A stretch of DNA of 64,000 nt, taken from positions 64,001-128,000 of the IMG/VR virus record IMGVR_UViG_3300045594_000116, one strand, 5' to 3'. Positions 1-36,078 of this stretch are shown here, piece by piece. The stretch's first letter is position 1. Every line of letters begins with the position of its first letter. A model generated the notes under the pieces. The model had not been told where the DNA came from. It was given only the letters and a program-made list of their open reading frames with translations, and made no database searches. The position numbers and the translations under genes are program-made. This DNA comes from a virus. Its lineage: Duplodnaviria; Caudoviricetes.

Positions 1-3000
1 CAGTGCCTTATTAATTGCTCCAGTGATGATAATAGAACTTACCATACGAGCATTAACTGCTGATGTAGTAAGAAGAGCATCTACTGGTTCATCTGGTCTG
101 AACTCTGTTCTAGGCTCATCACCCTTAGGCATTATATCTTTGACGACACCCTTGATAGAGTTATTATAGATAAGCTTATCGCCTACACCCATTTTATCTT
201 CGCACTTAAGATAGAACTCGATAAGAACGCTATCTTGTGCTTTCTTGAGTTTGCCGTTTGCTTCAAGTTTATAGTCAGGCTCTAAGAGATATTTAGCACC
301 CTCAATTTTATTTTTTGCAAACATGGCTTTATCTTTCTTGATCTGTGCTTCATAAGCTTTACAAATCTTTCTAAGAGAAGGAGAAAGATCCTCTAACTCA
401 CAAGTTCTGTAAATCTTGATATCCTGAACCCAACCAGAAAGTTTACTTCTAAGATGTATACGTCCGAGATCAGATACAGCTTCTACGTCATCATCGGTGA
501 TAGAGCGAAGCAATGCGTTAGCATCTTCTTCTTCAAATGCATTCTGGAATACCATAAGAGGATCTCCCTCATTGATAGCAGAACCTTTCTGTACCAGATT
601 ATATACATTAGCATCCTTAGACAGAATCTTTTCCTTCTTGACTACATACGTACTGCTCATAGCATCTGACAAGTATTCATCAATGATAGATGAATCCTCG
701 TATCCTTCATCTGTCGGAAGGATAGCAAGCTTACACATAGCTCCAATGGCATATGCCATATTCTTCGTATTCTTTTCAAGACCTACTGGTTTCTTATAAC
801 AAGTAGAATCATAAGCAAGAATATCATTGTTATGAAGAATCTGCCCCTTCTTAACTTTTGGATCGAGCTTAAGAGTTACATAGAATCCACCATCTGAATT
901 CTTCATTGTCTGCTCAGAAAGATTGATGAACTTACGTTCTTTGGTATCGCTATCTTCATAGATAAGATATCTATCAGTAACGTCAAGAACCTTACCTTTC
1001 TTTCCTTTGAAAGTAGCACAGAACAAATCTGATGTCATGTATGGAATAGCTTCATCCATGCCGGTAGTTATAAGATTAGGCATAGCCTTCTTGATACGCA
1101 TTGGATGTTTCGTGGACTGAATAAATCCCATTGCTACACGAATAGGATCATCATGTACAGTACAACCAGGATTCAAAGCCTCATGGATGCTAAGTGCATT
1201 AAGTGTATTTACATCCTTAGGAGTTTTGATCATTCCACGTACACCCTCTACAGATGCATTTATCGTAGCCTGACGAGTAATACCAACATTAGCGGCAAAA
1301 CCAGTAGACGATGCAACCACACCGAACATACTAGGATTGTATATACGCTTATCAAGACTGTAAGATCTATCAGAGTTCATACCAGATAGGCCTTTGAATG
1401 AAAGCGTATTAGCTTCCTCTGCTTCAAGCTGAGGATTCAATACAGATAGATCAGAGCATGTGCTATCCATAAGTACAGCATCAATTACTGCTGACTGTTT
1501 GACAGACATAGTCGCATCCTTCTTATTTCTCTTAAGCATAATGCGATATTCTCCATATGCTTTAGAAATAACTTTATCGAAGTACGCAGCAATGATTTCA
1601 TTGGTGCGGATTCTATTGCCAGAGATATCTGTATGAAGATTATACTTCGTATCTCCCAATAATGCACTAGCATAACCAAGAGCCGTTACATAATCATCTG
1701 GAAGATTATACGTATTACAAATCTCTTTAGTGATAGGATCAAACATGCAGTCATAGAAGTTATCCAAACCATCTGCTTTAATTCTTCCTCCAAAGTTATC
1801 TAAGAAGTCCAACCACATATTTTTGTTGTTGATATCTTTGATAGAGTAATCTTCTGTGTTACAGGTATACAAGCCGCTCATAAGAAGTGAGTTAGCTGTA
1901 GTATCCGGATATACTATATAGCCATCAGAGAACTTGATATAAGATTCATTAGCCTTAGGTCTTGTTTCACGGAATTCCGACTCTACTCCGGCTTTAGCCA
2001 TAGCCTGCTGTAATCCTTCACTGTATGCCATGACAACAATAACAGGAATTCCAGTAGCAAGAATAGAAGCTTCAGAATATGAAAGTCGTTTATCCGCCTT
2101 TATACCATCAAAGCAATCTAATCCCATATGAGATATGATTATAGACATGATGTCTGCACCGAAGTTTCCTGCATTACTACAAACGACCTTGCCCTTATCA
2201 TTTACATAGTAAGGGGTCATAGTAGGATCATCCTTGTCTTTAGGATTCATATAAGGCAGGCTAGTAAGTTCATCCATATTGAAACAGAGATATGATCCAT
2301 CTTTGAATATAACTTTGTTATAGTTAGAAGCTATATCTCTCATCTCGATAGGAATATCGTATTTCGAACATACAATGCTATTATCGCCTTCGATGATCTT
2401 CATTTTGTTTCCATCATACTTCTTGAGATACTTATTAATCACAGACATGGATTTCGTGGTTTTAGTACCATTTGAAGGATTGACACGACGAACAAAGATC
2501 TTATTATATGAACTTGATACTATCTGACAAGTATCTTCATCTGTTTTGATGATAGGAAGCAGTAATAACTGCCCATTCAAAACTTTTAGGTTACCACGCA
2601 ATTTCATAAAGCGATCATTTATGAATTTAGGAATGTCGAGTTTCAACGTGAATCTCTTACCATTGATATCTTCACACTTGATAGTCCATGTCTCAATATA
2701 ATCTTCGGTAGTAGATGTATCTTCCTTAATTATATCTAAGATTACGATAGGATTGGTCTTATTGTTAAGAGCCGCGAGACTATTGACAATATCTGATTCT
2801 AAGTTATACGACTTTGAGAATGTAGAGAACTGTATGTCTTTCCATTCTTCATTTATAGATTCAATAGGAATATTGTCTTTTGGCAAAGCCTGATTTGTTC
2901 CATTTACTTTGATCAGATCTTCGATCTTAGAGTTGTTAATCTTCTTTCCAAGGAAAGAGTTATATGCTTTTTCCATGCGTTGAGATCTAGCTTTATTGAT

Positions 3001-4566
3001 AGCAGGACCATCTTCAGATTGTAAATCCACAATAAGATTTTTCATCCATGCAGAGTCTACATCATTATTCAGATTGGTCATTGCGTCATCTTCATTTCCT
3101 GATTTCTCAGCAGCTGTTTGTACCTTCTGAACTAAAAGGGCTTTATCTACGTCTTCTTTAGAGGTATTTGCTTTCTTAGCATATGTAGCAGAATTGAAAT
3201 CATTACTATTCTTTTCCTTTGCTATATCCTCTTTAGTAGAACCAGATCCTGCACCACCGCTAAGATTATCTATTACGATACCACTCTTTTCAATCTTATC
3301 TACGATCTTATGAGTGATAACTTTAGACGAGTCTTTAGCAACGAACTCAGCGTCCTGCACACTATTCAAGCAAAGCTTGTTGATAAGCATATTGAAGTTA
3401 GATAACTTAGCCATAGTGAAGTCATCGAACTTCATCTTGAAGTATACTCCATTAGAGAAGAATACGAATTCAATATCTTTCCATGCGGATTTGATTTCAT
3501 CGTCTCTCTTGGTACGGAAGATACGATAGATAAGAGAGATAGGATTGATAGACTTGGTATAATCCCATACTGCATCCTTACCATTATACCATGCATCTAC
3601 TGGAATGAAGACTGTTTTTCTCTTATAGAACTCATTAAGTCTTGTATCTTGCAAGAACTTATTCAGGAAGTTGAAATAAAGGTCTATACCTTTATCCAAT
3701 TTATATACGTTATTCTTGAAGAATGATTCAGTATAGTAAGCCCAGTCAACGAAGAGATTGCGACTCTTATACTTCTTATAGTTCAAGTAGGTATATTTGA
3801 TGAATGGGCATCCTTCTTTGATTCTATCATAAATGATAGAGCATTCTTTTTGGTTCTTGATACGCTCATTGTACAGAAGTCTTCTAAGAGTACCGCCAAA
3901 ACCAGATGCTTCAGTAACATAATTCTCTACGAAATCTGGGAAGAACTGTTTGAAGTTATGACCTGATTCTGTATAAATAAGAGCTTCTTCCGTGATACGC
4001 TCTTCATCATAGTTATCATAATCAAGAACCTGCTCTGATAATGGAGTTGATTCTTTCTTTACATCTTCATGTGCATACTTATAGACTTCAGTATTCTCAG
4101 CTACTTCGATATTGAATCTCTTAGCTGCGACCATAATCCTTTTAGCGAGCTTAGACTTCTTGCCTTCTTCACAATGGCCGAATAGCTTTATAGCAGACTT
4201 TACATGCTCTGCTGTATCTAATGGGTACTTCCGATCTTCCGGCAATCCAAATGCTGAATCTGGTAACGCATTACGTTCTTTAGCAGTCATTTCCATAATA
4301 CATGATTCAAGTATCGAACTTGAATCTGTTGGAACCATGACCTTGGATTCGTTTATGATAAAATTGATGTCCTTCTCAAGATAATAAGACGTAAACAGAT
4401 TCTTATTGATAGTGAGGGGATGATTCATCATAGCGATAGAACTCTTGACATCTGGGGTCAAGAGGAAAATAGCACTTGATCTTCTTTTATCTTCTACATT
4501 AATGGGCAAGTAGAATGGAGTCTTATTCAACTTCATCTCTCTTACATCATCGAGATATATTGCCAC
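1..4566 (-). CDS. Phage multisubunit RNA polymerase beta-like subunit (3' end outside window, >1522 aa), probably virion RNAP
   Basis: Not in ORF track. GTG start at 4566 after GAAAGGTG RBS. Same frame confirmed by spot translation at several points. Motifs: FMKLRGNLKVLNGQL (~2570-2610), HDDPIRVAMGFIQSTKHP..PNLITTGMDE (~1050-1160; cf. RpoB HDDANRALMG..PLVGTGME), GDKLIYNNSIKGVVKDIMP..PVDALL..VNARM (~40-190; cf. RpoB GDK..KGV..DMP..SRM). Confidence 0.9.
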   Translation of the reverse strand, partial: MAIYLDDVREMKLNKTPFYLPINVEDKRRSSAIFLLTPDVKSSIAMMNHPLTINKNLFTSYYLEKDINFIINESKVMVPTDSSSILESCIMEMTAKERNALPDSAFGLPEDRKYPLDTAEHVKSAIKLFGHCEEGKKSKLAKRIMVAAKRFNIEVAENTEVYKYAHEDVKKESTPLSEQVLDYDNYDEERITEEALIYTESGHNFKQFFPDFVENYVTEASGFGGTLRRLLYNERIKNQKECSIIYDRIKEGCPFIKYTYLNYKKYKSRNLFVDWAYYTESFFKNNVYKLDKGIDLYFNFLNKFLQDTRLNEFYKRKTVFIPVDAWYNGKDAVWDYTKSINPISLIYRIFRTKRDDEIKSAWKDIEFVFFSNGVYFKMKFDDFTMAKLSNFNMLINKLCLNSVQDAEFVAKDSSKVITHKIVDKIEKSGIVIDNLSGGAGSGSTKEDIAKEKNSNDFNSATYAKKANTSKEDVDKALLVQKVQTAAEKSGNEDDAMTNLNNDVDSAWMKNLIVDLQSEDGPAINKARSQRMEKAYNSFLGKKINNSKIEDLIKVNGTNQALPKDNIPIESINEEWKDIQFSTFSKSYNLESDIVNSLAALNNKTNPIVILDIIKEDTSTTEDYIETWTIKCEDINGKRFTLKLDIPKFINDRFMKLRGNLKVLNGQLLLLPIIKTDEDTCQIVSSSYNKIFVRRVNPSNGTKTTKSMSVINKYLKKYDGNKMKIIEGDNSIVCSKYDIPIEMRDIASNYNKVIFKDGSYLCFNMDELTSLPYMNPKDKDDPTMTPYYVNDKGKVVCSNAGNFGADIMSIIISHMGLDCFDGIKADKRLSYSEASILATGIPVIVVMAYSEGLQQAMAKAGVESEFRETRPKANESYIKFSDGYIVYPDTTANSLLMSGLYTCNTEDYSIKDINNKNMWLDFLDNFGGRIKADGLDNFYDCMFDPITKEICNTYNLPDDYVTALGYASALLGDTKYNLHTDISGNRIRTNEIIAAYFDKVISKAYGEYRIMLKRNKKDATMSVKQSAVIDAVLMDSTCSDLSVLNPQLEAEEANTLSFKGLSGMNSDRSYSLDKRIYNPSMFGVVASSTGFAANVGITRQATINASVEGVRGMIKTPKDVNTLNALSIHEALNPGCTVHDDPIRVAMGFIQSTKHPMRIKKAMPNLITTGMDEAIPYMTSDLFCATFKGKKGKVLDVTDRYLIYEDSDTKERKFINLSEQTMKNSDGGFYVTLKLDPKVKKGQILHNNDILAYDSTCYKKPVGLEKNTKNMAYAIGAMCKLAILPTDEGYEDSSIIDEYLSDAMSSTYVVKKEKILSKDANVYNLVQKGSAINEGDPLMVFQNAFEEEDANALLRSITDDDVEAVSDLGRIHLRSKLSGWVQDIKIYRTCELEDLSPSLRKICKAYEAQIKKDKAMFAKNKIEGAKYLLEPDYKLEANGKLKKAQDSVLIEFYLKCEDKMGVGDKLIYNNSIKGVVKDIMPKGDEPRTEFRPDEPVDALLTTSAVNARMVSSIIITGAINKAL

Positions 4567-7915: not shown

Positions 7916-10900
7916 ATGCTTGCAATAGTAAAGAACTATATGAAGAATATTCCTAAATCTATTGCATATGCTACAGTAGATACTATAACTTCTAAGTCGG
8001 CTACATTACACGATTTTAGTGAACGTAACCAAGATCTGTATAAGAGCACTTATCACGCTATAAGAGATTATAGAACAACGATTGATAAGACTAAGAAGGC
8101 CATTCAGTCGTCTCCGATCTATAGGGCCGGAGACTTAGCGTTTAACAATGCTATGGAAGATATCCGTACGGGTAATTTCTATAACAAAGAACGCGAAAAC
8201 AAAATGGAAGAGGAAGCTGTAGGAGACTTTGGATTAGATGAGTTTGGCGAAGGTATAAACCTTGGTAACGAGGAGGGAAAACCTGAGGGTGATAAATCCC
8301 AGGTAGCACCTCCTTCACTTGGCGATAAGATGGTATGCTCCTCAATTGGAGATGCCGCAAAAGCTAATGCAACAGCAGTAGCAACTGCTGTTGGTAAAAC
8401 CGGTAAATACATAGCCGATACTCAGAAGTCTATAGCCAATATGCAGTATGTCCAGAATGCCCAAATGATGGGTGTTATGCAGACAGGATTCGGAAATATT
8501 TCTTCTGGATTACAAACTATATATACTACTACGGCAGGTTTGCTTAAAACTCAAGCTGATAACTCTAAGACATTCTATGAGACTACTACCAGAGCCCTTA
8601 ATGAACAGAATGCCATGATCAAAGAAATGCTTGAGATGCAAAGAGAGCGTTATAAGAAAGAGCAGGAGAAAGAAAAGCCTCATTCTAATAACTACTCGGA
8701 TATCATCTCAGCATCTGGCGCACCTGATCTTAAGATGTATGGTAAAGTTGTTCTTGAGAATGTAAAGAAGTTAGCTAATGAGAAGAGTATGGGTATCGCA
8801 TCGATGCTCGATGAAAATACTCTTAAAGCAATGGCTGCTAATCCATTAGGTGGTATCATTTCCCTTGGAATTAATGCTGCTATGGGTAATCATCTTAGCA
8901 AAGCAATGGAAAGATTTGACAAGACTCTTAGCGGAGTTTTCGGCAATTTCATTTCTAGAATGAATGCTGAAGCTAAGAAAGGAGACGGGCTAGCCGGTAT
9001 ACTCGGTAAGATCTTCGGGATCAAATCAACAGTAAAGACCACGTTGGATACGTCTAAATACGAAAAAGGAAATATGTCTTGGAATGGTAAGGCTAATAAA
9101 GCTCTTACCGAAGTAATTCCTGGATATCTTGCTAGAATTGAATCGGCTCTTACCGGTAAGGAAGAGAGACGTTATGATTTAGATAGTGGTAAATGGAAAT
9201 CTGTTCGGGCTATTAGAACCGAATGGAAAGCTAACCAGAAAAAGTATGTCACTGATTCTACCAGTGATGTACGTGAAGAAATGAAGAAGCTCATGAAAGG
9301 TATGCGTTTTAAGACGCTTGATAAGAAGAAAGGATTCGATGAGGATCTTGATAACTTCTTTGAAGCGTTGTATAACAATTACGGCGAATTCAATGAGCAC
9401 AATAATAAGGCTAATAAGAGCGATTATGGAGTATCCAGTAGCCAGAATTTCAAGATGATTCGGGAGATGTTCAAGAAGCTTCCGAAAAATGTGAGATCTC
9501 AGATTGCTGGTAACACTCTTAATGCAAGAGCATCGCAAGATACTACTAATAGAGCACATGAGAAGGCTGGTAATGCTGCATACAACGTTGTTTTCGATGA
9601 ATCTAATATGGGTTCTATCAATGAATTCAATGAGAAAACAGGTGAGCTTAAAAAGAATCTCGGATTGCTGAGTTCAATGAACTTGAACGTCATGAAGGAT
9701 TCTTATAAGCATACGGTATTTGATTATCTTAGAGATATCTCTGAGACATTGAAGAATATTCGTACCTTGTCTGAACGTGGTGGATTCGGTGGAGGCGGAG
9801 GAAATGGCCACGGTCATGGACGTAATCGTCGTCCTCGTTATAATTGGGATGAGATTAATAAGAATAATCGAGGTCCTAGAGAAGAGTCTAGAACTGAGAG
9901 AGATCAGGATAGAGAGGCTAGAAAACGTCAGCACTATTTAGATAGTGCAAAGGAAGGCGAATTTCAGTTTGATGATGATTCTTCCATGGGAAGATTCAAT
10001 ACAATTATCACTGCTAATGCATCTGCTAGAGATGCTAAACAGGCAGAGGATGATAGGACTAAAGGTAATTTTATCGATAGAGCTTTAGGCAGAAGAGCTA
10101 GGAATGCTAATGGCGATAAGAAAAGCTTATCGGCAAGATTGGCTGCTGCTGGATCTATATTTGATAAAGTTGATGTAATTGCTGATCAGCTTGCAGACTT
10201 TGCTAAGAAACCAACAGAGATGTTGGCAGGCGTGGTAGAGGCAGCAGATCAGCATGTTTATGATCTCTTCTTCTCCAAGGATTCTAATGAGGTTGATCCT
10301 GAAACAGGTGAACGTGCTCATGGTATGTTCGGCTATATGAAGATTCAGCTTAAGAAGACTTTCTCGGATGCAAATAAGTGGATCAAAGAAAAGATTACTG
10401 ATAAACTTAAAGAAAAGTATGGAGCAGATTCCATGCTTGGCGTTGCGAATAATGCCTTTAAGAAATATACCGGCATAGATGTCGGAGAAAAAATGAAGTC
10501 CCTTAAGACTAGCATTGTCGGAGATGGACAGGGCCAGAAAGGCTTACTCTCTCCTGTACTTGATGGAATCACTGATTCCCTTAAGAAAGCTTTAGTCGAG
10601 ATGAAAGAGGATGTAAAATCTACTGCAGAAGAAGCTAGACAAGCTGCAATGGATGCTATGAACGATGATGTAACCGTAGGCCAGAGGGCAAATGGTGGTT
10701 TCGTTCCTAGAACTGGTTTGTACATGCTGTCTAAGGGTGAGGCTGTTGTCAACTCTGAAGATAATCCGTATAATCCTAATAAAAATGCTAATGTAAATGC
10801 TGATGCTAAACGCGAACAGTCTATGATGGTTAAATTGCGTAAGCAATTTCCTAACGTAGATATCGTTGATGGTAATTACGCTAAAGGCACAAATCCTTTT

Positions 10901-13900
10901 AAGGATAAATATAAGAAAGAACAGCATAAGATAAGAAAGGCTAAGTTTAATCTTGACAGGGTAAATGGCCTACGAGATAAATACAAAGATCAACTTTCTG
11001 CATTTATGGGCTCCTTTATGGGCGAAGGTAAATCAGAAGATTCTGGTAAGATGAATCTTAAGGATGCTAAGTCCATTCTTCGTAGTGCAGCTAAAGGTGC
11101 TGGAAATTTCTCTGCAGAGACTATCGCTAAAGCAAAAGCTTTAGTAGATGCTGAGCAGAGTGAAAGAATCAATACCAGATCGGTTCAGTTTGCTGACTCT
11201 ATCTTAGGTAATGGAGACTTTAAGAAAACAAGACTGCAGATGGACAAAGCTAAATCTGCAATCATGAAACTCACCCCTAAAGTAGCAGGTGGAGCAGCTG
11301 TCGGTACGGCTGCTGGATTTGTACTTGGTGGTCCTCTTGTCGGTGCTGTATTAGGTTCTGCTACCGCTATTGCTATGAATAGCAAAACGGTAAATGAATT
11401 CTTATTCGGTAAAGTTGGGCAGGATGGAAAGAACGATAATAAAGGTATCTTCTCTGGTAAAACTCAGGAGTCTATCAAAAAATGGTTCCCAGATGCTAAG
11501 AAATACGGCATCACAGGAGGTGTCCTTGGGCTGATTGGGCCGTTTGGACCACTTACTGGTGTAATGTTAGGGTCAGCCATTGGATTCGCTAAACACAACG
11601 ATACTATCAAGAATGCTCTCTTTGGAGAGACCGGCCTTATTAATAAAGGAACTAAACAGAAACTCAAGAAAGCTCTTCCTGCAATGGGAATGGGTGCTGC
11701 TGCTGGTAATGTAGCAGGCTTATTACTTGGTGGGCCTTTCGGTTTATTAGGTAACTCTGTTATCGGCGCTGGCGTTGGAATGCTTGCATCTACTGACCAG
11801 TTCAAAGACACGGTATTCGGTAAAGACGATGGACACGGTCATAGAACTGGCGGCCTCGTTGGTGAGTTTAGAAATGCAGTTTTGAATCCATTTAAGGGCG
11901 GAGTAAAACGCGTTGTAGATAGATTTGGAAGATATCTTTCAGAAGATATCGTTAAGCCTGTAACTAGTGCTATGGCTCCTCTTGGTAAGGTTCTTGAACT
12001 TTCTATCAAGAAAATGGCTAGTGGAATTTCTAGTGTTGTAGGCGGAACTATAAAGAAAGTCCTCTCTCCTGTAACTGATGCAGCCACTCACTATTTCAAG
12101 AAGTTCTTCCTGAATAGCTGGGTAGGTAAGAAAGTAACAGAGGGAGCTAAACTTATTGGCGGTGGATTACTCAAAGTTGCATCTGCACCATCTTGGCTTA
12201 TCGGTAAAGTTGGAGATAAGGCTCGTGGATCTCTTATTAAGTCTGGTAATGCTGATTTCATGTCTGCAGAACAAAGACTTGCATTCGCCGATAAACATGG
12301 CATCAAAGACTATTCATTCTCTGGTCTTGATCAGTCTCTTGCTAATACTGATGCAAAGGGTGCAGAATCCTTAGCAGAACAGTTAAAGCTTATGCGTAAT
12401 AATGGTGAAGGGCTTGAGGATTCTCTTGCTACTTCTAGAGCTAACATGCGTAAAGATGTTCAAAGCAATGGTTCAATAGATAACTTTACTTACCGTAAGA
12501 TTGAGAAGCTTATGGAAGCTGGTAAGTATAAAGAAGCTATAGACTACGTTCAGTCTATGAAAAATATTACTTCTACAGAGAAAATGCGTATTATCAATGC
12601 GCTCAAATCTGGTCAGAAAGAAGTAGCTAAGAAGAGAAATGCAGCTGAAGCTGGTCGTACCAATATTCAAGCTGGCTATGAGAAATTATCTAAGCAGTAT
12701 GGCTTAGATATTACTGGCGATAATGCTAAGAAAATAGAAGCCCTTGCTCGTAAAGAAGCAGAGGCTAAGAGAAAAGATGAAGGTAATGGAAACACCGTAG
12801 AAGGTGAAGCAGCTGATGGTAGCGGTAGCTTAGTTACGGCTATGAATACTAATACTATAGAAACTGTGAATATCCTTACTGAGATTAATAAGAATCTTCA
12901 GGCATTCCTTAATGGAACCAAACCTGGAAATGCTGGTGCTGCATCTGAAAACAGAGCAGCTGCAAATGCTGATAAGACATTTGACCATGGCAATGATAAG
13001 ATAAATCAAAGAGCAGCATCATTAAATGGTGCACTTGAAGATAAGATGTTTGCATTGAATCAGAAGAATGGTTCAATGGTTAGAGCTAATATCTCTGATG
13101 AAAACATCTATAAACTTGCCGATAGCCGTTCTAGAGATGGCAAGAAGAAAGATAGAATGTCTAAACTCAATAAGATTATTGACAGAGGAATCAATCTTAC
13201 TGATACTATCAATATGATTCTTGGTCTTGATGACCCAGAATTTAAAATCATAACGGATTTCTTCGATACCGGTATGAATATGAATGCAACTGAACTTGCT
13301 GAATTCATTGGTGTATGCCATGATGATCGCATCATCGGTTGCGTAAAAGATTTCATTAAAGAAGGTATTCCATTTGAGCATCTTGCTTGGATGAAGAACT
13401 GTGATAATGAAATGAGACGTATGATTATTCAGTTGCATAAAGAGGCTTTGCCTAATGCTACTGCTGATCAGTTATATGCTGTATCTGGTAAATATGGCAC
13501 TATCATCAGTAATGCTAGAAATGGCATGAATGAAGATGAGATCACTAGATCCATCGGTAAGAAGCGTGGTGCCGATCTCAAGCGTGATACCAAAGCATTT
13601 GGTAATCAGGAAGCTTCTGATGTCTCTAAACGCAATAAAATGAATGTAGCATCTGATGCTATGAATAAAGCTGGTAAAGCTACAAATGGTGCTATTGATT
13701 CTATTGGTAATGCCACTATGGCTCCAATTAATCAAGCTAGAGGATTTTTACATACTTCAGCTGCAACTCAGGATGCTAGAAATAGTAGAGCTGCTTCTGA
13801 ACGTGCTGCAAATATAGATAAAGGAAATAATGCTTCTCTTAAAGAAGAGCAGAAAATGATAGAGCAGGCTAATAAGGGCCGTGCCGAAATAGAAAAGAAT

Positions 13901-16900
13901 AGCAAGGAAGCAGTTCCCGTTGGAGCGCATGCTTTTGGCCTTGCTAATTTGATTAGCGGAGGAATGAGTGTTCTCTCTAAAGGTGAGCAGATTCTTTCTC
14001 CTGTTACTAAGGTTCTTAAGAAAGGCTATAATGGCTATCAGAAAGCTAAGAGTATAGCTAATAAGTTTGCTCATCCGATTGACACAGCAATGGGATATGG
14101 CAAGAAGAAATGGAATAAAGCCTATAATGAAGCTAAAGCTATGCAGGCTGCTAAGAACGGTGGAGCCAGTGCTGGTTCTGCTGGTGGAGCTTCTACAGAA
14201 ACTGTAAGTACAGAGTTCGGACCTCAAACTTACACTAGGACTACTGACGGGTCGATGTCATTAGCCAATACGAAAGAGAATAAAGATATCCAGGATAAGA
14301 TGGCTCATAAAGAGGAAATGCAAGAAGAGATTGTTGCTAAACTCGAAGAGATTGCTGATAATACTGGAAATCCTCAGGGTGGTGGAGAACCACAGGGAAA
14401 GAAAAGCGGTGGATTCCTTTCTACGCTTCTTGCTTTACTTGGCGGGTTGCTCTCTATGCTGAATCCATTATCACTTGCTAAGAAACTTTTCTCGATCTTG
14501 AGATCGGTTGGCGGTAAGTTATTTGGAACTATTCTCAAAGATATCCTTCCGGCTATTCTTAAGAGATTCCCTATGCTTGGAAAACTCTTAGGTGGTTTAT
14601 TCTCTGGTGGCGGTGCTGGTGGATTATTCAGCGGCATTAAAGGCCTTGGCGGAAAAGCCCTTGGATGGCTTTCTGACAAAGCTATGATAGCTAAAGACGT
14701 AGCTGGAGGTACACTTAAAGCTATGGGTGGTCTTGCCCTTGACGCAGGCGGTAAAGCATTGAGCTGGGGTAAAGATAAGTTAGGTGGAATACTTGGAGGA
14801 GCAGGCAGAGGCCTAAGTAAACTCGGCGGAAAGATCGGTGGTATCTTTGGCGGAGGATCTTCTTCTGGCGGTGGATTCCTTGGAAAGTTAAAAGGAAAAG
14901 CTGGATCATTGCTTGGAGCTGCTAAAGGAATTGGCGGCAAAGCACTAGGTATGGCTCCTGGACTTGCTAAAGGAGCTGCTGGCCTTATGGTCGGTGGCGG
15001 AATGATAGATGGTATTAAATCTCTTACGTGTACTGCTTTGGATTGGGTTAAGAGCCAGATCTTTGGCGGTGATAGTGGAGATGGTAGCTCAGACGGCAAT
15101 GAGTCTAATGGTGGTGGCGGAGGTTTATTCAATACTGCTATGGATTATGGTGGTAAAGCCGTAGATTGGGCTAGAGATAAAGCTGGTAAAGCTGCTGGTT
15201 GGGTTGGAGATAAAGCTAGTGGCCTCTGGAATGGAGCTAAATCTGTAGCTGGTAAAGCTGCTGGTTGGGTTGGAGATAAAGCATCCGCAATCAAGAATGC
15301 TGGTTCTAAAGCAGTAGATTGGGGACTTAGCCATATAGAGGGTGCTAAAGGCGCAGCTCTTAAAGGATGGCAAGGTATAAAAGGCGTCGCTAGTAGTGCT
15401 ATGGATGCTGGTAGCTCTTTCATGAGCAAAGCAGCTGATGCTGGAAGCGGTGTAATAGAGGCAGTTAAGAATAGAGTAAGTGGCTTACTTAAGACTATTG
15501 GTAACTATGCTGCTAAGATGATTCCTAAGAATATTGCCGGTAAGTTGAGCACTGTTCTTGATAAGATCATGGAAAAGGTTACTAATCCTCAGAACGCTGC
15601 TAAGCTGGCTGAGAAGATTGGTATCAAACAAGGATTTACTGCGGCTGAAGCCGGAGCAGGTCCAGAAACTCTTGGGGTTGGTACGCTTGTTGTAGGTGCT
15701 GCCGAAATTGGTTTCTGGTTCACTAAAGGTTATAACAATGCATCTGAAGATTTCGATCTGAAAGATGGTGTAGAACCAACTACAGGAATGAAGTTCGCAT
15801 CTGGTTTGGCTGAGGCTGTAACAGGCGCTACTCCTATTGGCTACGTTCTTGATGGTAAAGATGTTATCGATATCGTCCAAGACATAATGGGTTCTGATAT
15901 TGGAGCCAGCAATAAAGATGTCAACAGTGCTAACCAAAGCAATGATGGCGCTCAGCAACAGATGAGCGGCGGTAATGATAGCAATGGGGGCGACGGTGGA
16001 GATGATGATAACAAGTCTTGGTTCGATAAAGCGAAAGACTTTGCAGCTAATGCAGCTAGTTCTGCTAAGAATGCGGTCGTAGGTGCTTATGATTGGGCTA
16101 AAGATAAAGTATCTGGTATCGCTTCCGTTATAAAGAATAGATTCGGTAGTGGTAAATGGGGTAGAGGTGCTGGAGATTTCTACTCTCAGTTAGATCCATC
16201 CGTAGCAGGAATGCGTTTCAACGCTCCTGGTGATACTGTAACCCAGACCATTGGTGATTCTGCTTGTGGTCCTGCTTCTATGCTTAATATGGCCTCTGCT
16301 CTTGGTAAAGGCAAATGGGGTAGAAGCAAGTGGGGTAGAGGTGCTTCAGATCTTGTAGCTGCCGCTAAAGATGCCCTTCCTTTCAAAGAAAAAGATGGCG
16401 GTGTCCATCCTGATTACTTTAGAAAAGAAGGAGAAAAGTTAGGTATTCATACTGAGAATATCGGAGTTTCTAATATGGATGCTGCCGTAGATGCAGGTAA
16501 ACCTGTCATCTTAATGGGTAGAGATTCTAATAATAATGGTACTGGTAACACTCCTGGTGTATATGGCCCTTACAACCATTATATCACCGTTACTGGTAAA
16601 GATAAGAAAGGTAATTACATTACACAAGATCCTGAGGGTAACCCGAATCAGAGTGTATCTAAGAATTATCTTAAAGCTCATAGCTCACTTGCTATTGCTG
16701 GTTCTACTGGTAGAGGCAAATGGGGTAGAGCTAAAGCCATGATCGCTAGTGCTGCTAGAAGAGCTAAACTTGGATTTGGCCGTAGCAAATGGGGTCGTGG
16801 TACCGATAATGCTGAAACTATCTGGAACTTGCTTACTACGCAGTATGGCTTGTCTAATCAGGCAGCTGCTGGTATCATGGGTAATATGCAGCAGGAATCA

Positions 16901-19900
16901 GGATTTGATCCGCATGCCGTTCAGGATGGAGGATCTGCTGATGAACCCCCAGATTCTTGCTTGAATGCGGCAGATGGTTCAAATGCATACGGATTGTGCC
17001 AGTGGACTGGATCTAGACTTAGAGCAATGAACGATTTTGCTAAGAGTCAAGGTAAGTCTGCCGGAGATATAGAAGTTCAGTTAGCATTCATGAAGCAGGA
17101 AGCAGGAGATACCTGGAATACGATATCTAATGCTGGAACTGCTGAAGAAGCTGCTACTATTTGGGCTAGAGAATTCGAGCGTTGCGGAATAGATGGTAGT
17201 CGTGTAGCGTATGCTACAGATATCTTCGCTAAGCAGGGCAAAGGAATTACAAATAAGAGCACCCCTTCTGGTAATCAGAATGGTAATAGTAGCGGTGGTA
17301 ATCAGAAGGACTATTCTGGTCTTTATGGTAAAATCGCTAAGATACAGGATGCTTTGTCATCAGCATTCGACTTTGGAGAGAAGAAGCCGGATAACAAAAA
17401 TGGCAATAAGCCTGGTGGTCTGAACGTAACAGGAGACGTTAAGTACGCTGTTCTTAAAGATCTTTCTAAATTCATCAATGGTGGAGATCCTAAAATTGCA
17501 GCTGGTGCACAGGTAGCTATGAAGACTTCACAGCTTACTGGACTGCCGGCAGATCTGATATTCGCACAGATGGTCAATGAATCAGGTTGGTTCAAGAGCG
17601 CGGTTGCAGAAGCAGATCATAACTATGGTGGTATTAAAGCGTATGGTGATGCTAAACGTGGTAGTGCCGCTGATGATGGTGAATACTATCGTCACTTTGA
17701 TAGCGATGAAGAGTATGCACAATACTATGCAACCACCCTTAAGAAATATGAAGAGGATGGTATAGGGCAAGCAGATACTCCAGAAAAATTCGCTCATGCA
17801 TTGAAGGCTGGTGGATATTATGCTGGAGATGAAACTGATTATGCTAATACAATGCGTGGCATTCTTAATGGCGGTGGTGGCAAATGGGGAAGAGGCAGAC
17901 GCTCACTTCCTATAGGTACTACAGCTAAGTATGGCAGAGGATTCTTTAGCAGTATTGCAGATTTCATCAATAATCGTAAGCCTGCGGCAGCTGATGATAG
18001 CGAGCAGGGCTCTGAATATACAGATACCAAGCCAAATCCTAACGGAGATAGTGGCGGGGATGATAGTTCATCTTCTAGCGACGACAGTAGCAGTAGTGAT
18101 GATAGTAGCAAAGACAAAGATGGAAAAGATAAAGATAAGAAAAAGGACGATAAGAACAAAAAGCCTGATTCGAACTCTGAGGATATTGGCGATGGTGGTA
18201 TGCTTGATAAAATCGGCACTACTGCAGAAACCATGGCAAAGAGCCTTCACGATACAATAGCCCCAATAATTAAATCTATTGGCGGATTGGCCACTAAAAT
18301 ATTTGGTAGTAACATTACCAAGATCTTTGGTAAGACTAATCCATTTGAAAAACAATTTAGTTCTGGTAGTGAGAGTAGCAACAAAGATGGAGATAACAAA
18401 TCCGGCAACAAGGATTCTAAAGGAAAGCAGCTGCCTGGTGTTAAAGTAGCTGGAAATCCGGTAGAAATGTTGACCAGTAATCTGCATGCTCCTGTTACCT
18501 CTGACTATGGAGCCACCGATGGGCGTCCTGATGCAGGAGCACATGGTGGTGTAGATATAGGAGCTGAGCAAGGCACTCCGGTTCCATCCACTGTATCTGG
18601 TACTGCTACATGGGTACCGCCAGCGGGTTCCGGTGGTGGCGGATATGGTAATGCCGTCCAGGTAAAGGATTCTAAAGGAAACTTCCATATGTTTGCTCAT
18701 ATGGATTCACAGGCTGTATCACAAGGACAAACAGTCGCTAAAGGAGATATTCTTGGATATGTAGGAAGTACAGGCATATCTACAGGACCGCATCTTCACT
18801 ATGAGATAGACCCTCCAGAAAATGAAAATGCTGTTAAGAGGGGTGAACACATTGATCCTAATAGTTATTCAGTAGAAGGATTGGGGAAGTGGGGTTTAGG
18901 TGCAAGACCTAAGCATAGTGGATATGCGGATGTCGACAGCAAGCATCCTATGTCTAAAAAAATAATGCAGATTTCTGATGCCGCAAGTATACTCTCTCAC
19001 AAACAAGTTCATGAAGCTGCTAAAAGCGCTGGATTGGCTGCTAGTGGTAAATGGGGTAGAGGCATTGGCAGTTGGCTGAAGCGCGTAGGCGGAAGTGTAA
19101 GAGACTTTGCAGTTCATAGCGTTAGAAGTATCGGAGGATTCTTATCTGGCGATGCTAACGACGATACAGCTAAAACAGATGTTCCGACGGAGAAAGAAGT
19201 AGCTCCAAATGGAAAGAATTACGAAACTAATGATGTCAAATATCTGACTGATAAAGGATATACTAGAGAGGATGCTCTCAAGTTCCTCGCTACAGATCCT
19301 AAATATGCTGGCAAGGCTGGCGATGATATAGCTCCAAATGGTACTAAATATTCTGAGAATGATATTAAGTATTTGCTGAGCAAAGGATACACTAGAGCGG
19401 ATGCTCTCAAGTTCCTCGCTACAGATCCTAAGTATGCTAAAGCAGCAGGCAAGGGTAAGTGGGGTCGTGGTGGAATCGGAAGTTGGTTCCATCGTATTAC
19501 TACGAGCGTTGGAGACTTTGTGTCTCATGGCGTAAAGAGTATAGGTGGTTTCTTATCTGGTGATGCTAAAGCCGATACAACTAAAACAGATGTTCCAACT
19601 GAGAAAGAAGTAGCTCCAAATGGAAAGAACTACGAAACTAATGATGTCAAATATTTGACTGATAAAGGATATAGTAGAGAAGATGCTCTCAAGTTCCTCG
19701 CTACAGATCCTAAATATGCTGGTAAAGCCGGCGATGATACAGCTCCAAATGGTACTAAGTATTCTGAGAATGATATTAAGTATCTTTTGAGTAAAGGATA
19801 CACTAGAGCGGATGCTCTTAAGTTCCTCGCTACAGATCCTAAATATGCTAAAGCTTCTGGTAAGGGTAAGTGGGGTCGTGGTGGAATCGGAAGTTGGTTC

Positions 19901-22498
19901 CATCGTATTACTACGAGCGTTGGAGACTTTGTGTCTCATGGCGTAAAGAGTATAGGTGGTTTCTTATCTGGTGATGCCAACGCAGATACAACCAAAGCAT
20001 CCAATGTTCCTACGGAAAAGGAAGTAGCTCCAAATGGAAAGAACTACGAAACTAACGATGTTAAATATCTGACTGATAAAGGATATAGTAGAGAAGATGC
20101 TCTCAAGTTCCTCGCTACAGATCCTAAATATGCTAAGTCTGATGACACAGCACCTAATGGTACTAAATATTCTGAGAATGATATTAAGTATTTGCTGAGC
20201 AAAGGATACACTAGAGCGGATGCTCTTAAGTTCCTCGCTACAGATCCTAAATATGCTAAAGCTTCTGGTAAAGGCAAATGGGGTCGTGGTGGAATCGGAA
20301 GTTGGTTCCATCGTATTACTACAAGCATTGGTGATTTCTTTAGCGGAAAATCTAGCTCCACTCCTGCAGCTAACGTTCCAACAGAAAAGGAAGTAGCTCC
20401 AAACGGAAAGAACTACGAGACCAATGATGTCAAATATCTTTTAGATAAAGGGTATAAGAGAGAGGATGCTCTTAAGCTTCTTTCTACAGATCCTAAGTAT
20501 GCTAAGTCTGATGACACAGCACCTAATGGCAAGAAATATTCTGAGAATGATATTAAGTATTTGCTGAGCAAAGGATACACGAGAACTGATGCTCTCAACT
20601 TCCTTGCTACAGATCCTAAATATGCAAAGACGAATGCTAGCTCCACTCCTGCTCCAGCAAGTATAGCTCCAGCTAAATCTGCTACTGAGCAGGCTAGCTC
20701 TGTACTGTCAACTAAAGGAACTGTAACGCTTCCTACAGCTCCAAAGGCCGCCGCTCCTATAACGGCTCCTGCACCTAATCCGAATTCTATTGAAGGAATA
20801 AGAGCTACCATAGCCGATATTCCTATTGATCAGATTGCGGAATATAACCGTATACTTGATACTGATAGCATTGCTGTTGCTAAGGCTAAAGCTGAGAAGG
20901 CTAGATCCGAATATCAGAAAGCTACTGGTACTGGTAAATGGGGTAGAGGTAATGGAATAGATGCTATTAGGGCTTCTATCTCCGACATTCCAGAATCTAG
21001 CATTCCGTCGTATAATCGTATCAACGATGATGACGACTTATTCGTTGCTAGAGCTAAAGCCCGTAGAATCCGCGCTATGTATGGAGGAAGCAATTCTTCT
21101 ACTATGGCAGCACCTACAAGCTTAGCATCTGTTGCAGCATCGGCTCCATCGGTCGGCATTAGCAGCACTCCTGCTATGAGCTCTGGAGCTTCAGGTAATA
21201 TAGATGCAGCTAAAACTATAGCTGAGATTCGCGCATGTATCTCAGATATCCCAGAATCTAGTATTCCGTCATATAATCGTATCAGCGATGATGATGACTT
21301 ATTTGTTGCTAGAGCTAAAGCTAAGAGAATTCGTGCCATGTATGGTAGCGGCTCTGGTAAATGGGGTAGAGGTGGAATCGGTAGTTGGTTCCATCGTATT
21401 ACTACAAGCATTGGAGACTTCTTCACTGGTGGCAGTAGTAGTAAATCTACATCTGCTGCAGTGGCAGTTGAAAAAGAAGTAGCACCTAATGGTAAACATT
21501 ATGAAACCAATGATGTAAATTACCTTACTAAGAATGGGTTCACAAGAGATGCTGCAATAAAGTATCTTGCAAACGATCCTAAATATTCTTCAAAGGATCT
21601 TGCTCCTAATGGACAGGAATACTCTGAGAATGATATTAAGTATTTGCTGAGTAAAGGATACACTAGAGCGGACGCTATTAAGTTCCTCGCTACCGATCCT
21701 AAGTATGCTAAGAAGAAGGAAGAAGAGAAGAAAGCCGCAACTGCACCAGCTACGACCACTCCTATTACTAACACCACTCTTAGCACTACGAATACTTCAG
21801 TTCCTACACCTCCAAAGACTGCAGCACCTATAACTGCAGCTGCTCCAAATCCGAATTCTATTGAAGGGATTAGAGCATCTATTGCTGATATTCCGCAGGA
21901 TCAGATTGCTGATTACAATAAGATTCTTGATACTGATAGCCTTGACGTTGCTAGAGCAAAAGCAGAAAAGGCTAGATCTGAATATCAGAAAGCTACTGGT
22001 ACTGGTAAATGGGGTAGAGGTAATGGCCTTGATGCATTGCGTCAGTCCATATCTGATATTCCACAGGATCAGATTGCTGATTACAATAAGATTCTTGATA
22101 CTGATAGCCTTGATGTTGCTCATGCCAAAGCTACTCAGATAAGAGCAAACTATAGAAGATCTCTTCCATCCGCTCCGGGTAGTGTTAGCCAGTCTAACAA
22201 TATACCTCCAGCTCCTGGAACTGTAACTGCCAATGGTATGGCTCCTGGTATGCCTGATCATGGTGATAAATTCGATACGATGATTGAACTTCTTAAAGGT
22301 ATGGCTAAAACTCTTATTGTTATCGCTCAGAATGGCAATGGCGGTGGGTCTGCTCAGCAGAAGCAAATCGACGATATGAAGACGCAGCTTGGCTCCGTTG
22401 TATCTGGATTCAACCAGACTACTGGAGTTAGTGATGTATTCGGAGGAAAGGATACCTCTAGTATCATAAACTCCTTGAATGTATTAGCTACTAGATAA
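7916..22498 (+). CDS. Giant tape-measure-like tail protein / virion-associated lysin polyprotein (4860 aa)
   Basis: AAAGGAGG RBS. Long helical and Gly/Ala-rich N-terminal part with hydrophobic GxxxG segments. C39-like peptidase (YSQLD..ACGPAS..NHYI, ~16180-16700). Phage tail lysozyme (AAAGIMGNMQQES..YGLCQWT, ~16810-17230). GH73 glucosaminidase (AQMVNESGW..NYGGIK..GGYY, ~17490-17865). M23 peptidase (HGGVD..HMDS..STGPHLHYE, ~18490-18860). C-terminal repeats. Confidence 0.85.
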   Translation: MLAIVKNYMKNIPKSIAYATVDTITSKSATLHDFSERNQDLYKSTYHAIRDYRTTIDKTKKAIQSSPIYRAGDLAFNNAMEDIRTGNFYNKERENKMEEEAVGDFGLDEFGEGINLGNEEGKPEGDKSQVAPPSLGDKMVCSSIGDAAKANATAVATAVGKTGKYIADTQKSIANMQYVQNAQMMGVMQTGFGNISSGLQTIYTTTAGLLKTQADNSKTFYETTTRALNEQNAMIKEMLEMQRERYKKEQEKEKPHSNNYSDIISASGAPDLKMYGKVVLENVKKLANEKSMGIASMLDENTLKAMAANPLGGIISLGINAAMGNHLSKAMERFDKTLSGVFGNFISRMNAEAKKGDGLAGILGKIFGIKSTVKTTLDTSKYEKGNMSWNGKANKALTEVIPGYLARIESALTGKEERRYDLDSGKWKSVRAIRTEWKANQKKYVTDSTSDVREEMKKLMKGMRFKTLDKKKGFDEDLDNFFEALYNNYGEFNEHNNKANKSDYGVSSSQNFKMIREMFKKLPKNVRSQIAGNTLNARASQDTTNRAHEKAGNAAYNVVFDESNMGSINEFNEKTGELKKNLGLLSSMNLNVMKDSYKHTVFDYLRDISETLKNIRTLSERGGFGGGGGNGHGHGRNRRPRYNWDEINKNNRGPREESRTERDQDREARKRQHYLDSAKEGEFQFDDDSSMGRFNTIITANASARDAKQAEDDRTKGNFIDRALGRRARNANGDKKSLSARLAAAGSIFDKVDVIADQLADFAKKPTEMLAGVVEAADQHVYDLFFSKDSNEVDPETGERAHGMFGYMKIQLKKTFSDANKWIKEKITDKLKEKYGADSMLGVANNAFKKYTGIDVGEKMKSLKTSIVGDGQGQKGLLSPVLDGITDSLKKALVEMKEDVKSTAEEARQAAMDAMNDDVTVGQRANGGFVPRTGLYMLSKGEAVVNSEDNPYNPNKNANVNADAKREQSMMVKLRKQFPNVDIVDGNYAKGTNPFKDKYKKEQHKIRKAKFNLDRVNGLRDKYKDQLSAFMGSFMGEGKSEDSGKMNLKDAKSILRSAAKGAGNFSAETIAKAKALVDAEQSERINTRSVQFADSILGNGDFKKTRLQMDKAKSAIMKLTPKVAGGAAVGTAAGFVLGGPLVGAVLGSATAIAMNSKTVNEFLFGKVGQDGKNDNKGIFSGKTQESIKKWFPDAKKYGITGGVLGLIGPFGPLTGVMLGSAIGFAKHNDTIKNALFGETGLINKGTKQKLKKALPAMGMGAAAGNVAGLLLGGPFGLLGNSVIGAGVGMLASTDQFKDTVFGKDDGHGHRTGGLVGEFRNAVLNPFKGGVKRVVDRFGRYLSEDIVKPVTSAMAPLGKVLELSIKKMASGISSVVGGTIKKVLSPVTDAATHYFKKFFLNSWVGKKVTEGAKLIGGGLLKVASAPSWLIGKVGDKARGSLIKSGNADFMSAEQRLAFADKHGIKDYSFSGLDQSLANTDAKGAESLAEQLKLMRNNGEGLEDSLATSRANMRKDVQSNGSIDNFTYRKIEKLMEAGKYKEAIDYVQSMKNITSTEKMRIINALKSGQKEVAKKRNAAEAGRTNIQAGYEKLSKQYGLDITGDNAKKIEALARKEAEAKRKDEGNGNTVEGEAADGSGSLVTAMNTNTIETVNILTEINKNLQAFLNGTKPGNAGAASENRAAANADKTFDHGNDKINQRAASLNGALEDKMFALNQKNGSMVRANISDENIYKLADSRSRDGKKKDRMSKLNKIIDRGINLTDTINMILGLDDPEFKIITDFFDTGMNMNATELAEFIGVCHDDRIIGCVKDFIKEGIPFEHLAWMKNCDNEMRRMIIQLHKEALPNATADQLYAVSGKYGTIISNARNGMNEDEITRSIGKKRGADLKRDTKAFGNQEASDVSKRNKMNVASDAMNKAGKATNGAIDSIGNATMAPINQARGFLHTSAATQDARNSRAASERAANIDKGNNASLKEEQKMIEQANKGRAEIEKNSKEAVPVGAHAFGLANLISGGMSVLSKGEQILSPVTKVLKKGYNGYQKAKSIANKFAHPIDTAMGYGKKKWNKAYNEAKAMQAAKNGGASAGSAGGASTETVSTEFGPQTYTRTTDGSMSLANTKENKDIQDKMAHKEEMQEEIVAKLEEIADNTGNPQGGGEPQGKKSGGFLSTLLALLGGLLSMLNPLSLAKKLFSILRSVGGKLFGTILKDILPAILKRFPMLGKLLGGLFSGGGAGGLFSGIKGLGGKALGWLSDKAMIAKDVAGGTLKAMGGLALDAGGKALSWGKDKLGGILGGAGRGLSKLGGKIGGIFGGGSSSGGGFLGKLKGKAGSLLGAAKGIGGKALGMAPGLAKGAAGLMVGGGMIDGIKSLTCTALDWVKSQIFGGDSGDGSSDGNESNGGGGGLFNTAMDYGGKAVDWARDKAGKAAGWVGDKASGLWNGAKSVAGKAAGWVGDKASAIKNAGSKAVDWGLSHIEGAKGAALKGWQGIKGVASSAMDAGSSFMSKAADAGSGVIEAVKNRVSGLLKTIGNYAAKMIPKNIAGKLSTVLDKIMEKVTNPQNAAKLAEKIGIKQGFTAAEAGAGPETLGVGTLVVGAAEIGFWFTKGYNNASEDFDLKDGVEPTTGMKFASGLAEAVTGATPIGYVLDGKDVIDIVQDIMGSDIGASNKDVNSANQSNDGAQQQMSGGNDSNGGDGGDDDNKSWFDKAKDFAANAASSAKNAVVGAYDWAKDKVSGIASVIKNRFGSGKWGRGAGDFYSQLDPSVAGMRFNAPGDTVTQTIGDSACGPASMLNMASALGKGKWGRSKWGRGASDLVAAAKDALPFKEKDGGVHPDYFRKEGEKLGIHTENIGVSNMDAAVDAGKPVILMGRDSNNNGTGNTPGVYGPYNHYITVTGKDKKGNYITQDPEGNPNQSVSKNYLKAHSSLAIAGSTGRGKWGRAKAMIASAARRAKLGFGRSKWGRGTDNAETIWNLLTTQYGLSNQAAAGIMGNMQQESGFDPHAVQDGGSADEPPDSCLNAADGSNAYGLCQWTGSRLRAMNDFAKSQGKSAGDIEVQLAFMKQEAGDTWNTISNAGTAEEAATIWAREFERCGIDGSRVAYATDIFAKQGKGITNKSTPSGNQNGNSSGGNQKDYSGLYGKIAKIQDALSSAFDFGEKKPDNKNGNKPGGLNVTGDVKYAVLKDLSKFINGGDPKIAAGAQVAMKTSQLTGLPADLIFAQMVNESGWFKSAVAEADHNYGGIKAYGDAKRGSAADDGEYYRHFDSDEEYAQYYATTLKKYEEDGIGQADTPEKFAHALKAGGYYAGDETDYANTMRGILNGGGGKWGRGRRSLPIGTTAKYGRGFFSSIADFINNRKPAAADDSEQGSEYTDTKPNPNGDSGGDDSSSSSDDSSSSDDSSKDKDGKDKDKKKDDKNKKPDSNSEDIGDGGMLDKIGTTAETMAKSLHDTIAPIIKSIGGLATKIFGSNITKIFGKTNPFEKQFSSGSESSNKDGDNKSGNKDSKGKQLPGVKVAGNPVEMLTSNLHAPVTSDYGATDGRPDAGAHGGVDIGAEQGTPVPSTVSGTATWVPPAGSGGGGYGNAVQVKDSKGNFHMFAHMDSQAVSQGQTVAKGDILGYVGSTGISTGPHLHYEIDPPENENAVKRGEHIDPNSYSVEGLGKWGLGARPKHSGYADVDSKHPMSKKIMQISDAASILSHKQVHEAAKSAGLAASGKWGRGIGSWLKRVGGSVRDFAVHSVRSIGGFLSGDANDDTAKTDVPTEKEVAPNGKNYETNDVKYLTDKGYTREDALKFLATDPKYAGKAGDDIAPNGTKYSENDIKYLLSKGYTRADALKFLATDPKYAKAAGKGKWGRGGIGSWFHRITTSVGDFVSHGVKSIGGFLSGDAKADTTKTDVPTEKEVAPNGKNYETNDVKYLTDKGYSREDALKFLATDPKYAGKAGDDTAPNGTKYSENDIKYLLSKGYTRADALKFLATDPKYAKASGKGKWGRGGIGSWFHRITTSVGDFVSHGVKSIGGFLSGDANADTTKASNVPTEKEVAPNGKNYETNDVKYLTDKGYSREDALKFLATDPKYAKSDDTAPNGTKYSENDIKYLLSKGYTRADALKFLATDPKYAKASGKGKWGRGGIGSWFHRITTSIGDFFSGKSSSTPAANVPTEKEVAPNGKNYETNDVKYLLDKGYKREDALKLLSTDPKYAKSDDTAPNGKKYSENDIKYLLSKGYTRTDALNFLATDPKYAKTNASSTPAPASIAPAKSATEQASSVLSTKGTVTLPTAPKAAAPITAPAPNPNSIEGIRATIADIPIDQIAEYNRILDTDSIAVAKAKAEKARSEYQKATGTGKWGRGNGIDAIRASISDIPESSIPSYNRINDDDDLFVARAKARRIRAMYGGSNSSTMAAPTSLASVAASAPSVGISSTPAMSSGASGNIDAAKTIAEIRACISDIPESSIPSYNRISDDDDLFVARAKAKRIRAMYGSGSGKWGRGGIGSWFHRITTSIGDFFTGGSSSKSTSAAVAVEKEVAPNGKHYETNDVNYLTKNGFTRDAAIKYLANDPKYSSKDLAPNGQEYSENDIKYLLSKGYTRADAIKFLATDPKYAKKKEEEKKAATAPATTTPITNTTLSTTNTSVPTPPKTAAPITAAAPNPNSIEGIRASIADIPQDQIADYNKILDTDSLDVARAKAEKARSEYQKATGTGKWGRGNGLDALRQSISDIPQDQIADYNKILDTDSLDVAHAKATQIRANYRRSLPSAPGSVSQSNNIPPAPGTVTANGMAPGMPDHGDKFDTMIELLKGMAKTLIVIAQNGNGGGSAQQKQIDDMKTQLGSVVSGFNQTTGVSDVFGGKDTSSIINSLNVLATR
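19045..22150 (+). repeat. Intragenic repeat array: 10 copies of APNG..Y..ND..YL..KGY.R.DAL..L..DPKY and 5 copies of IRA.I.DIP...I..YN.I.D.D.L.VA.AKA
   Basis: Near-identical ~400-bp DNA units at ~19045-20630; repeats visible in the translation. Confidence 0.95.
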
Positions 22499-34930: not shown

Positions 34931-34960
34931 TTCAAATAAAAATAGAGGAGGAAAACTAAC

Positions 34961-36001: not shown

Positions 36002-36078
36002 GAAAAAATAATAGAGTATATATTTCAGGCAATGGCTTAGTCCATTGCCTGTTATATTACTTTTAAGGAGGATAAAAA

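Follow-up and report, generated by a model that had tools for sequence, protein, structure and literature searches.

We propose that a giant tail protein of 4860 amino acids, encoded in a 64,000-nucleotide stretch of viral DNA (hereafter the window), cleaves itself, and that a short motif repeated along its C-terminal part is the putative site of a C39-like cysteine protease built into the same chain. We put the probability of this reading, which is drawn from sequence comparison and structure prediction, at roughly 0.6. The enlarged C-terminal region would then make the protein a polyprotein comprised of a ruler, the protease, exchangeable cargo cassettes and an anchor. Two features expected of a self-processing polyprotein, a recurrent consensus at module borders and a protease with intact catalytic residues, are found in one chain; the motif is conserved among homologs and the protease holds a fixed position.

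The tape-measure ortholog and its genome setting

The source genome is a 229.5-kb uncultured virus record, 91% complete according to CheckV. The first 450 residues of the giant protein match gp203 of Bacillus phage AR9 (annotated as a tape measure), PBS1 gp95, BpSp gp263 and gp176 of the Fusobacterium phage JD-Fnp1, with an E-value of 5e-13 for the N-terminus in a tblastn search against AR9, and the downstream order of genes, a virion protein followed by RusA, is the same in the window and in AR9. This N-terminal homology and the shared order of tape measure, virion protein and RusA place the protein among the AR9/PBS1-type tape measures and identify it as the tape measure of an AR9/PBS1-like jumbo myophage, with an enlarged C-terminal cargo region. 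Homologs of ~2700-7300 amino acids were found on metagenomic contigs, many of them 230-320 kb long. The features of the gene are as follows:

7916..22498, + strand: giant tail-protein gene (4860 aa), a single ORF, ortholog of AR9 gp203, PBS1 gp95 and JD-Fnp1 gp176
7916..16150, + strand: motif-free, tape-measure-like N-terminal part (aa 1-2745), the putative ruler for a tail of ~390 nm
16151..16168, + strand: first GKWGRG, separating the ruler part from the C39-like domain
16172..16711, + strand: C39-like papain-fold cysteine peptidase (PF13529, 30.2 bits, cut-off 24)
16310..16342, + strand: two motifs in tandem, in the loop that follows the catalytic helix; they duplicate the Y-G-R-G found there across the family
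16715..16801, + strand: GKWGRA and SKWGRG, two motifs that follow the C39 domain and precede the lysozyme
16805..17230, + strand: phage tail lysozyme (PF18013, E 1.7e-34)
17510..17869, + strand: GH73 glucosaminidase (PF01832, E 1.4e-16), with no motif between it and the lysozyme
17879..17941, + strand: GKWGRG and AKYGRG, after GH73
18539..18823, + strand: M23 peptidase (Pfam), zinc-ligand motifs intact
18884..19063, + strand: GKWGLG and GKWGRG, after M23
19058..22120, + strand: repeat region with units of ~136-220 aa that each begin with a motif; an amphipathic helix follows many of these motifs
22253..22495, + strand: C-terminal helical segment with a similar pattern across the family, a candidate baseplate anchor by analogy with T5 pb2C (PMC10038345)

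The length of the motif-free part can be compared with a known tail. The cultured phage JD-Fnp1 has a tail of 335 nm (PMC9670143). The first motif of its ortholog lies at residue 2352, which gives 0.142 nm per residue (335 nm over 2352 aa), an approximate figure because a second C39-like domain lies within the JD-Fnp1 ruler part. This ratio is close to the one usual for tape measures, and when applied to the phage of the window it yields the tail of ~390 nm given above; the full-length JD-Fnp1 protein would give ~430 nm. In this one ortholog the tail fits the part before the first motif, which suggests that the cargo lies outside the ruler. The fit is compatible with cleavage but is no proof of it, since cargo folded uncut at the baseplate would fit too. 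The second C39-like domain of JD-Fnp1 gp176 (L002, aa 1309-1432) has Cys, His and Asp, and no aromatic-G-x-G sites were found beside it.

Several other genes in the window deserve mention. An 1802-aa protein (47420-52828, - strand) has an N-terminal zinc finger, an AAA/kinase-like stretch, a NUDIX-like domain and three transglutaminase-like segments, each with a Cys in G-x-C context. Four tandem ORFs of 346-492 aa (33809-38779, + strand) have N-terminal halves that look alike, and one of them weakly matches phiKZ_IP (E 7e-4); they are probably internal head proteins. A 1522-aa protein (1-4566, - strand) has DUF6582 near its start and a weak RNA_pol_Rpb2_6 match near its end, and the relatives L004 and L005 have a 1448-aa gene in its place.

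The repeated motif at module borders

The earlier note had listed 13 KWGR copies and two variants in this protein, and all of them are present, within the last 2115 of its 4860 residues. The hexamers start at nucleotides 16151, 16310, 16325, 16715, 16784, 17879, 19046, 19454, 19865, 20273, 20933, 21356 and 22004 (the positions first reported were those of the Lys codon, 3 nt after each hexamer start), and the variants AKYGRG and GKWGLG at 17924 and 18884. Also as reported, no copy occurs before residue 2746. The composition of the protein predicts 0.02 occurrences of KWGR, so that a chance origin of the 13 copies is rejected, and the other ORFs of at least 100 aa in the genome (~62,000 aa) hold six scattered loose matches, none of them repeated. 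Several copies stem from tandem duplication of repeat units, and the number of independent placements is therefore ~9-10 rather than 15. An origin as a low-complexity artefact was rejected, as was a site for a head protease, since phiKZ-type head proteases cut after Glu.

The placement of the motif at module borders holds in part. The Pfam-assigned C39_2, lysozyme, GH73 and M23 domains lie among the motifs, which bracket the cargo block at both ends; however, the lysozyme/GH73 border and the front of M23 have none, M23 being preceded by a ~200-aa spacer. The separate release of each hydrolase that had been suggested is thus not borne out, because lysozyme and GH73 would remain one piece.

Downstream, one 38-aa repeat occurs ten times in the repeat region and a second at least four times, and searches of the Atlas with both repeat types gave no match. 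A Pfam match to DUF434 in this region was set aside as probably an artefact of the repeats. Between 19058 and 21450 five motifs are directly followed by an amphipathic helix with a hydrophobic moment of 0.42-0.54; a cut would possibly expose this helix at a new N-terminus and yield a membrane-binding piece.

The motif system is a real, family-wide feature. We searched for the strict pattern [KR][WYF]G[RKMTL][GAS], whose consensus is [KR]-[YFW]-G-[RKTM]-G, and found 383 occurrences in the cargo regions of 139 homolog clusters against 8.75 in shuffled sequences, 374 of them outside the four mapped domains. In 133 clusters its density is ~40-fold above shuffles and 18-fold higher in the cargo than in the N-terminal ruler part. 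It lies at most 25 aa upstream of C39 in 35% of cases and of lysozyme in 53% of C39-bearing clusters, and within 25 aa downstream of M23 in 44%, against a ruler background of 0.3% in each case; in 80% of the 95 clusters with at least three sites, the first site precedes the C39 start by no more than 35 aa. Conservation at borders in homologs, named beforehand as the refuting test, was thus checked and the motif survived it. Because the first searches had contained the motif, we repeated the count on 29 clusters found by the N-terminus alone, which hold 47 motifs against 2.7 expected.

The wording of the motif differs between lineages, from GKWGRG in the window to SKYGRG, GRFGRG, looser GSG or GRG sites and the G-F-G-P of JD-Fnp1, and ~50 C39-bearing clusters have only looser GSG/GRG/GKG sites. 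Within each protein the motif is homogenised, and tandem and clustered copies are common. W, Y and F interchange, as do K and R, and the codons vary (AGA/CGT, AAA/AAG); this synonymous variation indicates that selection acts on the peptide. The last motif lies a median of 149 aa from the protein end. In the homologs P0003, P0005 and P0016 an extra motif near residue 2720, ~400-450 aa upstream of C39, follows an Arg-rich run and is absent from the protein of the window. Several motif-bracketed cassettes of 200-400 aa in P0003, P0043 and P0016 have no or weak Pfam matches and are candidate new wall-active domains.

The modules themselves are exchangeable. In a sibling phage that is 97-99% identical, an unrelated Cys/His module replaces M23: by blastn ranges, identity is lost at 18351 and returns at 19037, three codons ahead of a motif. 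The replacement (L012:3001-13536 versus window 18352-19036) has no Pfam hit. The giant gene of this sibling is split into parts of 1400 and 3511 aa, probably by a frameshift or an assembly error. Judging from this swap, motifs can serve as crossover points for module exchange; recombination would explain the spread of copies but not their conservation, since only one swap end lies at a motif.

The C39-like domain and orthologs that lack it

The protease domain is a member of Peptidase_C39_2 (PF13529), with a profile score above the curated cut-off and a papain-like fold that carries Gln2777 (16244), Cys2784 (16265), His2888 (16577) and Asp2905 (16628). In 128 representatives, taken from clusters at <50% identity, Cys, His and Gln are conserved in 100% and Asp in 99%, which upholds the view that the catalytic residues are intact. 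The AlphaFold model has a pLDDT of 92, and its fold matches PeiR (Z 15.8), PCAT1 (14.2), ComA (14.1), LahT (13.3) and a CDI toxin domain (12.3). Among them PeiR is lytic, a phage cell-wall peptidase (PMC6189367), and ComA, LahT and Cpe1 cut at Gly-Gly motifs (PMC12136450). The fold matches both wall-cutting and protein-cutting enzymes, with a lead of PeiR over PCAT1 of <2 in Z, and thus leaves the role undecided between the two. The C39 domain alone gave no sequence match in the PDB or among cultured phages, and a related-locus search with the C39 region returned nothing.

The domain is not one of the double-glycine leader peptidases. Pfam found no ABC transporter domain in the protein and no PF03412 match in the genome, and the motif is aromatic-G-x-G rather than GG or GA, with a further Gly after G-x-G at only 18 of the 199 border sites. 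The original argument from double-glycine cleavage is therefore not supported in the form given.

More telling for its role than the fold, as far as comparison of homologs can indicate, is the fixed first position of C39. Profile searches place the domain in 132 of 139 clusters (Pfam adds JD-Fnp1), and in 131 it heads the mapped cargo modules, whereas the wall lysins are swapped (lysozyme in 112, M23 in 39, GH73 in 14). Several homologs carry host-type C39 copies among their cargo, the split between primary and host-type copies being a crude pattern. Other comparisons were less informative: a predicted complex pairing the C39 domain and a motif peptide of 32 aa scored 0.07 and was not counted as evidence; when protease columns were compared with motif type, 2785, 2830, 2832, 2887 and 2891 differed between clades, none significantly and with only 5 independent pairs; and distance congruence with the N-terminus is mixed (C39 0.31, lysozyme 0.16, M23 0.43).

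One tandem motif pair lies inside the protease. It aligns with a Y-G-R-G seen across the family (Y39 G93 R37 G56; 128 representatives) where the catalytic helix ends, a place at which a Tyr-Gly cap is usual in C39 domains, and its loop is modelled at a pLDDT of ~72, below the rest of the domain. A self-limiting cut at this pair is possible, given the occurrence of an internal aromatic site in 39 clusters, all with at least two external motifs, and in none of the 49 clusters without them, a comparison confounded by kinship; against it, the site coincides with the ordinary C39 helix cap. From its location, the pair may be a site that nicks or inactivates the enzyme, or merely the helix cap.

C39 is absent at three places on the tree, namely AR9/BpSp, P0271 and a 53-sequence clade that is surrounded by motif-rich proteins, and no C39 was found elsewhere in the AR9 genome or in a complete genome of that clade. 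The aromatic-type motifs are nearly absent from orthologs without the protease: the strict motif occurs 0.42 times per 1000 aa in C39-less gut lineages versus 2.55 with C39, and P0271 keeps one copy. The tie is not exclusive, as C39-less gut orthologs carry an x-G-G motif at the same borders, so that C39 is not required for a border Gly motif; the 40-fold enrichment of x-G-G is inflated, having been obtained with a pattern defined on those same proteins. All 54 C39-less gut sequences keep M23, versus 35 of the 132 C39-bearing clusters. The sequence of the motif thus appears to shift upon loss of the protease, as a substrate site should, although a tree test of C39 presence against motif has no power with only three loss events (3 pairs).

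Proposed self-cleavage, its alternatives and related systems

In the mechanism that we favor, the built-in cysteine protease would recognise the repeated basic-aromatic-Gly-basic-Gly motif and cut most likely after its first Gly (P2 aromatic, P1 Gly), as suggested by the habits of the papain family, either during tail assembly or at ejection. The cuts would free a ruler of ~2750 aa and release the protease, lysozyme with GH73, the spacer with M23, repeat units and the anchor, with cassettes of 130-365 aa that would then sit in the baseplate or go to the cell wall. Support comes from close structural relatives (PCAT/ComA, Cpe1) that cut proteins at Gly-containing motifs, from the Fusobacterium phage JD-Fnp1, which keeps C39 along with G-F-G-P/G-Y-G-R sites of its own, and from the fall of the strict motif where C39 is lost. 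Self-cleavage is weakened by the cell-wall peptidase at the top of the structural matches, the motif copy inside the protease, the ~50 C39-bearing clusters with only looser sites, the x-G-G borders without C39 and the small number (3) of independent C39 losses. The earlier interpretation is supported in part, by the motif at homolog borders, the intact catalytic residues, C39 in its fixed first place and the near absence of aromatic motifs where C39 is lacking; the double-glycine argument, the release of separate hydrolases and an exclusive tie to C39 are not supported as they were put.

Another enzyme (M23, a separate phage protease or a host protease) might cut the motif, with C39 as a PeiR-like wall hydrolase, but we consider this improbable. 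The rank of the lytic enzyme PeiR among the fold matches (PMC6189367), the host-type C39 copies carried as cargo and the 54 of 54 C39-less gut orthologs with M23 and Gly-Gly borders all speak for it, and in TP901-1 Tal processing takes place at a Gly-rich motif that lies ahead of the catalytic part (PMC11409707). However, the motif is widespread although M23 is found in only 35 of 132 C39-bearing clusters, C39 stays first while true wall enzymes swap, and the other papain-fold protein of this genome, the 1802-aa transglutaminase-like one, had no match in four related phages with the segment tested.

The shift from the aromatic motif to x-G-G that accompanies C39 loss in two separate lineages, its homogenisation within each protein and its place at both ends of the cargo block also make it unlikely that the motif is never cut and acts as a docking or turn signal, with an aromatic anchor and basic residues between glycines that tether folded modules to the baseplate, tube, chaperone, membrane or teichoic acid. 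Such docking would agree with the persistence of a G-x-G core whether C39 is present or not (AR9 has a GSG-type linker in front of its lysozyme), with the frequent tandem and clustered copies, as avidity would predict, and with the copy within the protease fold. We give very little weight to the motif as a by-product of DNA microhomology, a crossover point for swapping or duplicating modules: the M23 swap of the sibling does end at 19037, next to a motif, and repeat units begin at motifs, but the left swap end (~18351) is not at one, codons vary, and across the family conservative amino-acid changes alter the DNA. A DNA-only signal as the sole cause is largely refuted by the variable codons and the off-motif left end.

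The closest known systems include orthologs. AR9 gp203 and PBS1 gp95, tape measures of Takahashivirus, share the N-terminus, the gene neighbourhood and a wall hydrolase near the C-terminus; unlike the protein of the window, AR9 gp203 has 1925 aa, one lysozyme-type domain, no strict motif and no C39 in either protein or genome. JD-Fnp1 gp176 (UTV60964, annotated as a papain-like cysteine protease) is an ortholog from a cultured phage; its C39 is intact and its module borders carry three G-[FY]-G-[PR] sites, another variant of the motif, but the C39 follows the lytic module and a second C39-like domain is present; the isolation paper (PMC9670143) does not discuss it. T5 pb2, lambda gpH and T4 gp5 are tail proteins with single cuts (PMC10038345), and in these and TP901-1 Tal (PMC11409707) cleavage separates a muralytic domain, in Tal at a Gly-rich motif; in contrast to the protein of the window, they have one cut, no repeated consensus and no built-in cysteine protease described. 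PCAT1/ComA/LahT, Cpe1 (PMC12136450) and PeiR (PMC6189367) share the fold (Z 12-16) and Cys-His catalysis with our domain, and several cut at Gly motifs, whereas our domain is 14-21% identical to members of the C39 family, has neither ABC transporter nor GG leader, and its substrate is putative. Built-in processing peptidases are known from MARTX, clostridial and polymorphic toxins (PMC3482391). Of these, the MARTX and large clostridial ones are working analogues, giant proteins with exchangeable modules and an intrinsic thiol peptidase (PMC3482391), but that peptidase has a caspase-like fold and is induced by small molecules in eukaryotic cells, and the toxins are secreted rather than virion proteins.

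Our literature search found no description of the motif and no paper on a tape measure with a cis-acting cysteine protease and many consensus sites. Cleavage of tape-measure proteins is known but usually, to our knowledge, not the enzyme behind it. With a candidate enzyme, candidate sites and the cultured phage JD-Fnp1 named, the question becomes directly testable. More tentatively, and as a doubtful extension, tape measures across a gut/rumen jumbo-phage clade may be multi-site polyproteins cut by a built-in papain-fold protease, with motif and protease acting together as a plug-in device for the exchange of lysin cassettes, with an internal site that switches the protease off, and with protease-less lineages having moved to Gly-Gly sites handled by M23. 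The protein offers a possible new sequence-specific protease, and the motif provides natural borders for mining lysins and cargo domains that lack an assignment. If self-cleavage is true, it would explain how a tail protein of 3000-7000 aa with several folded enzymes fits a narrow tail tube, and a phage virion protein would join RNA viruses and MARTX toxins in using the polyprotein strategy.
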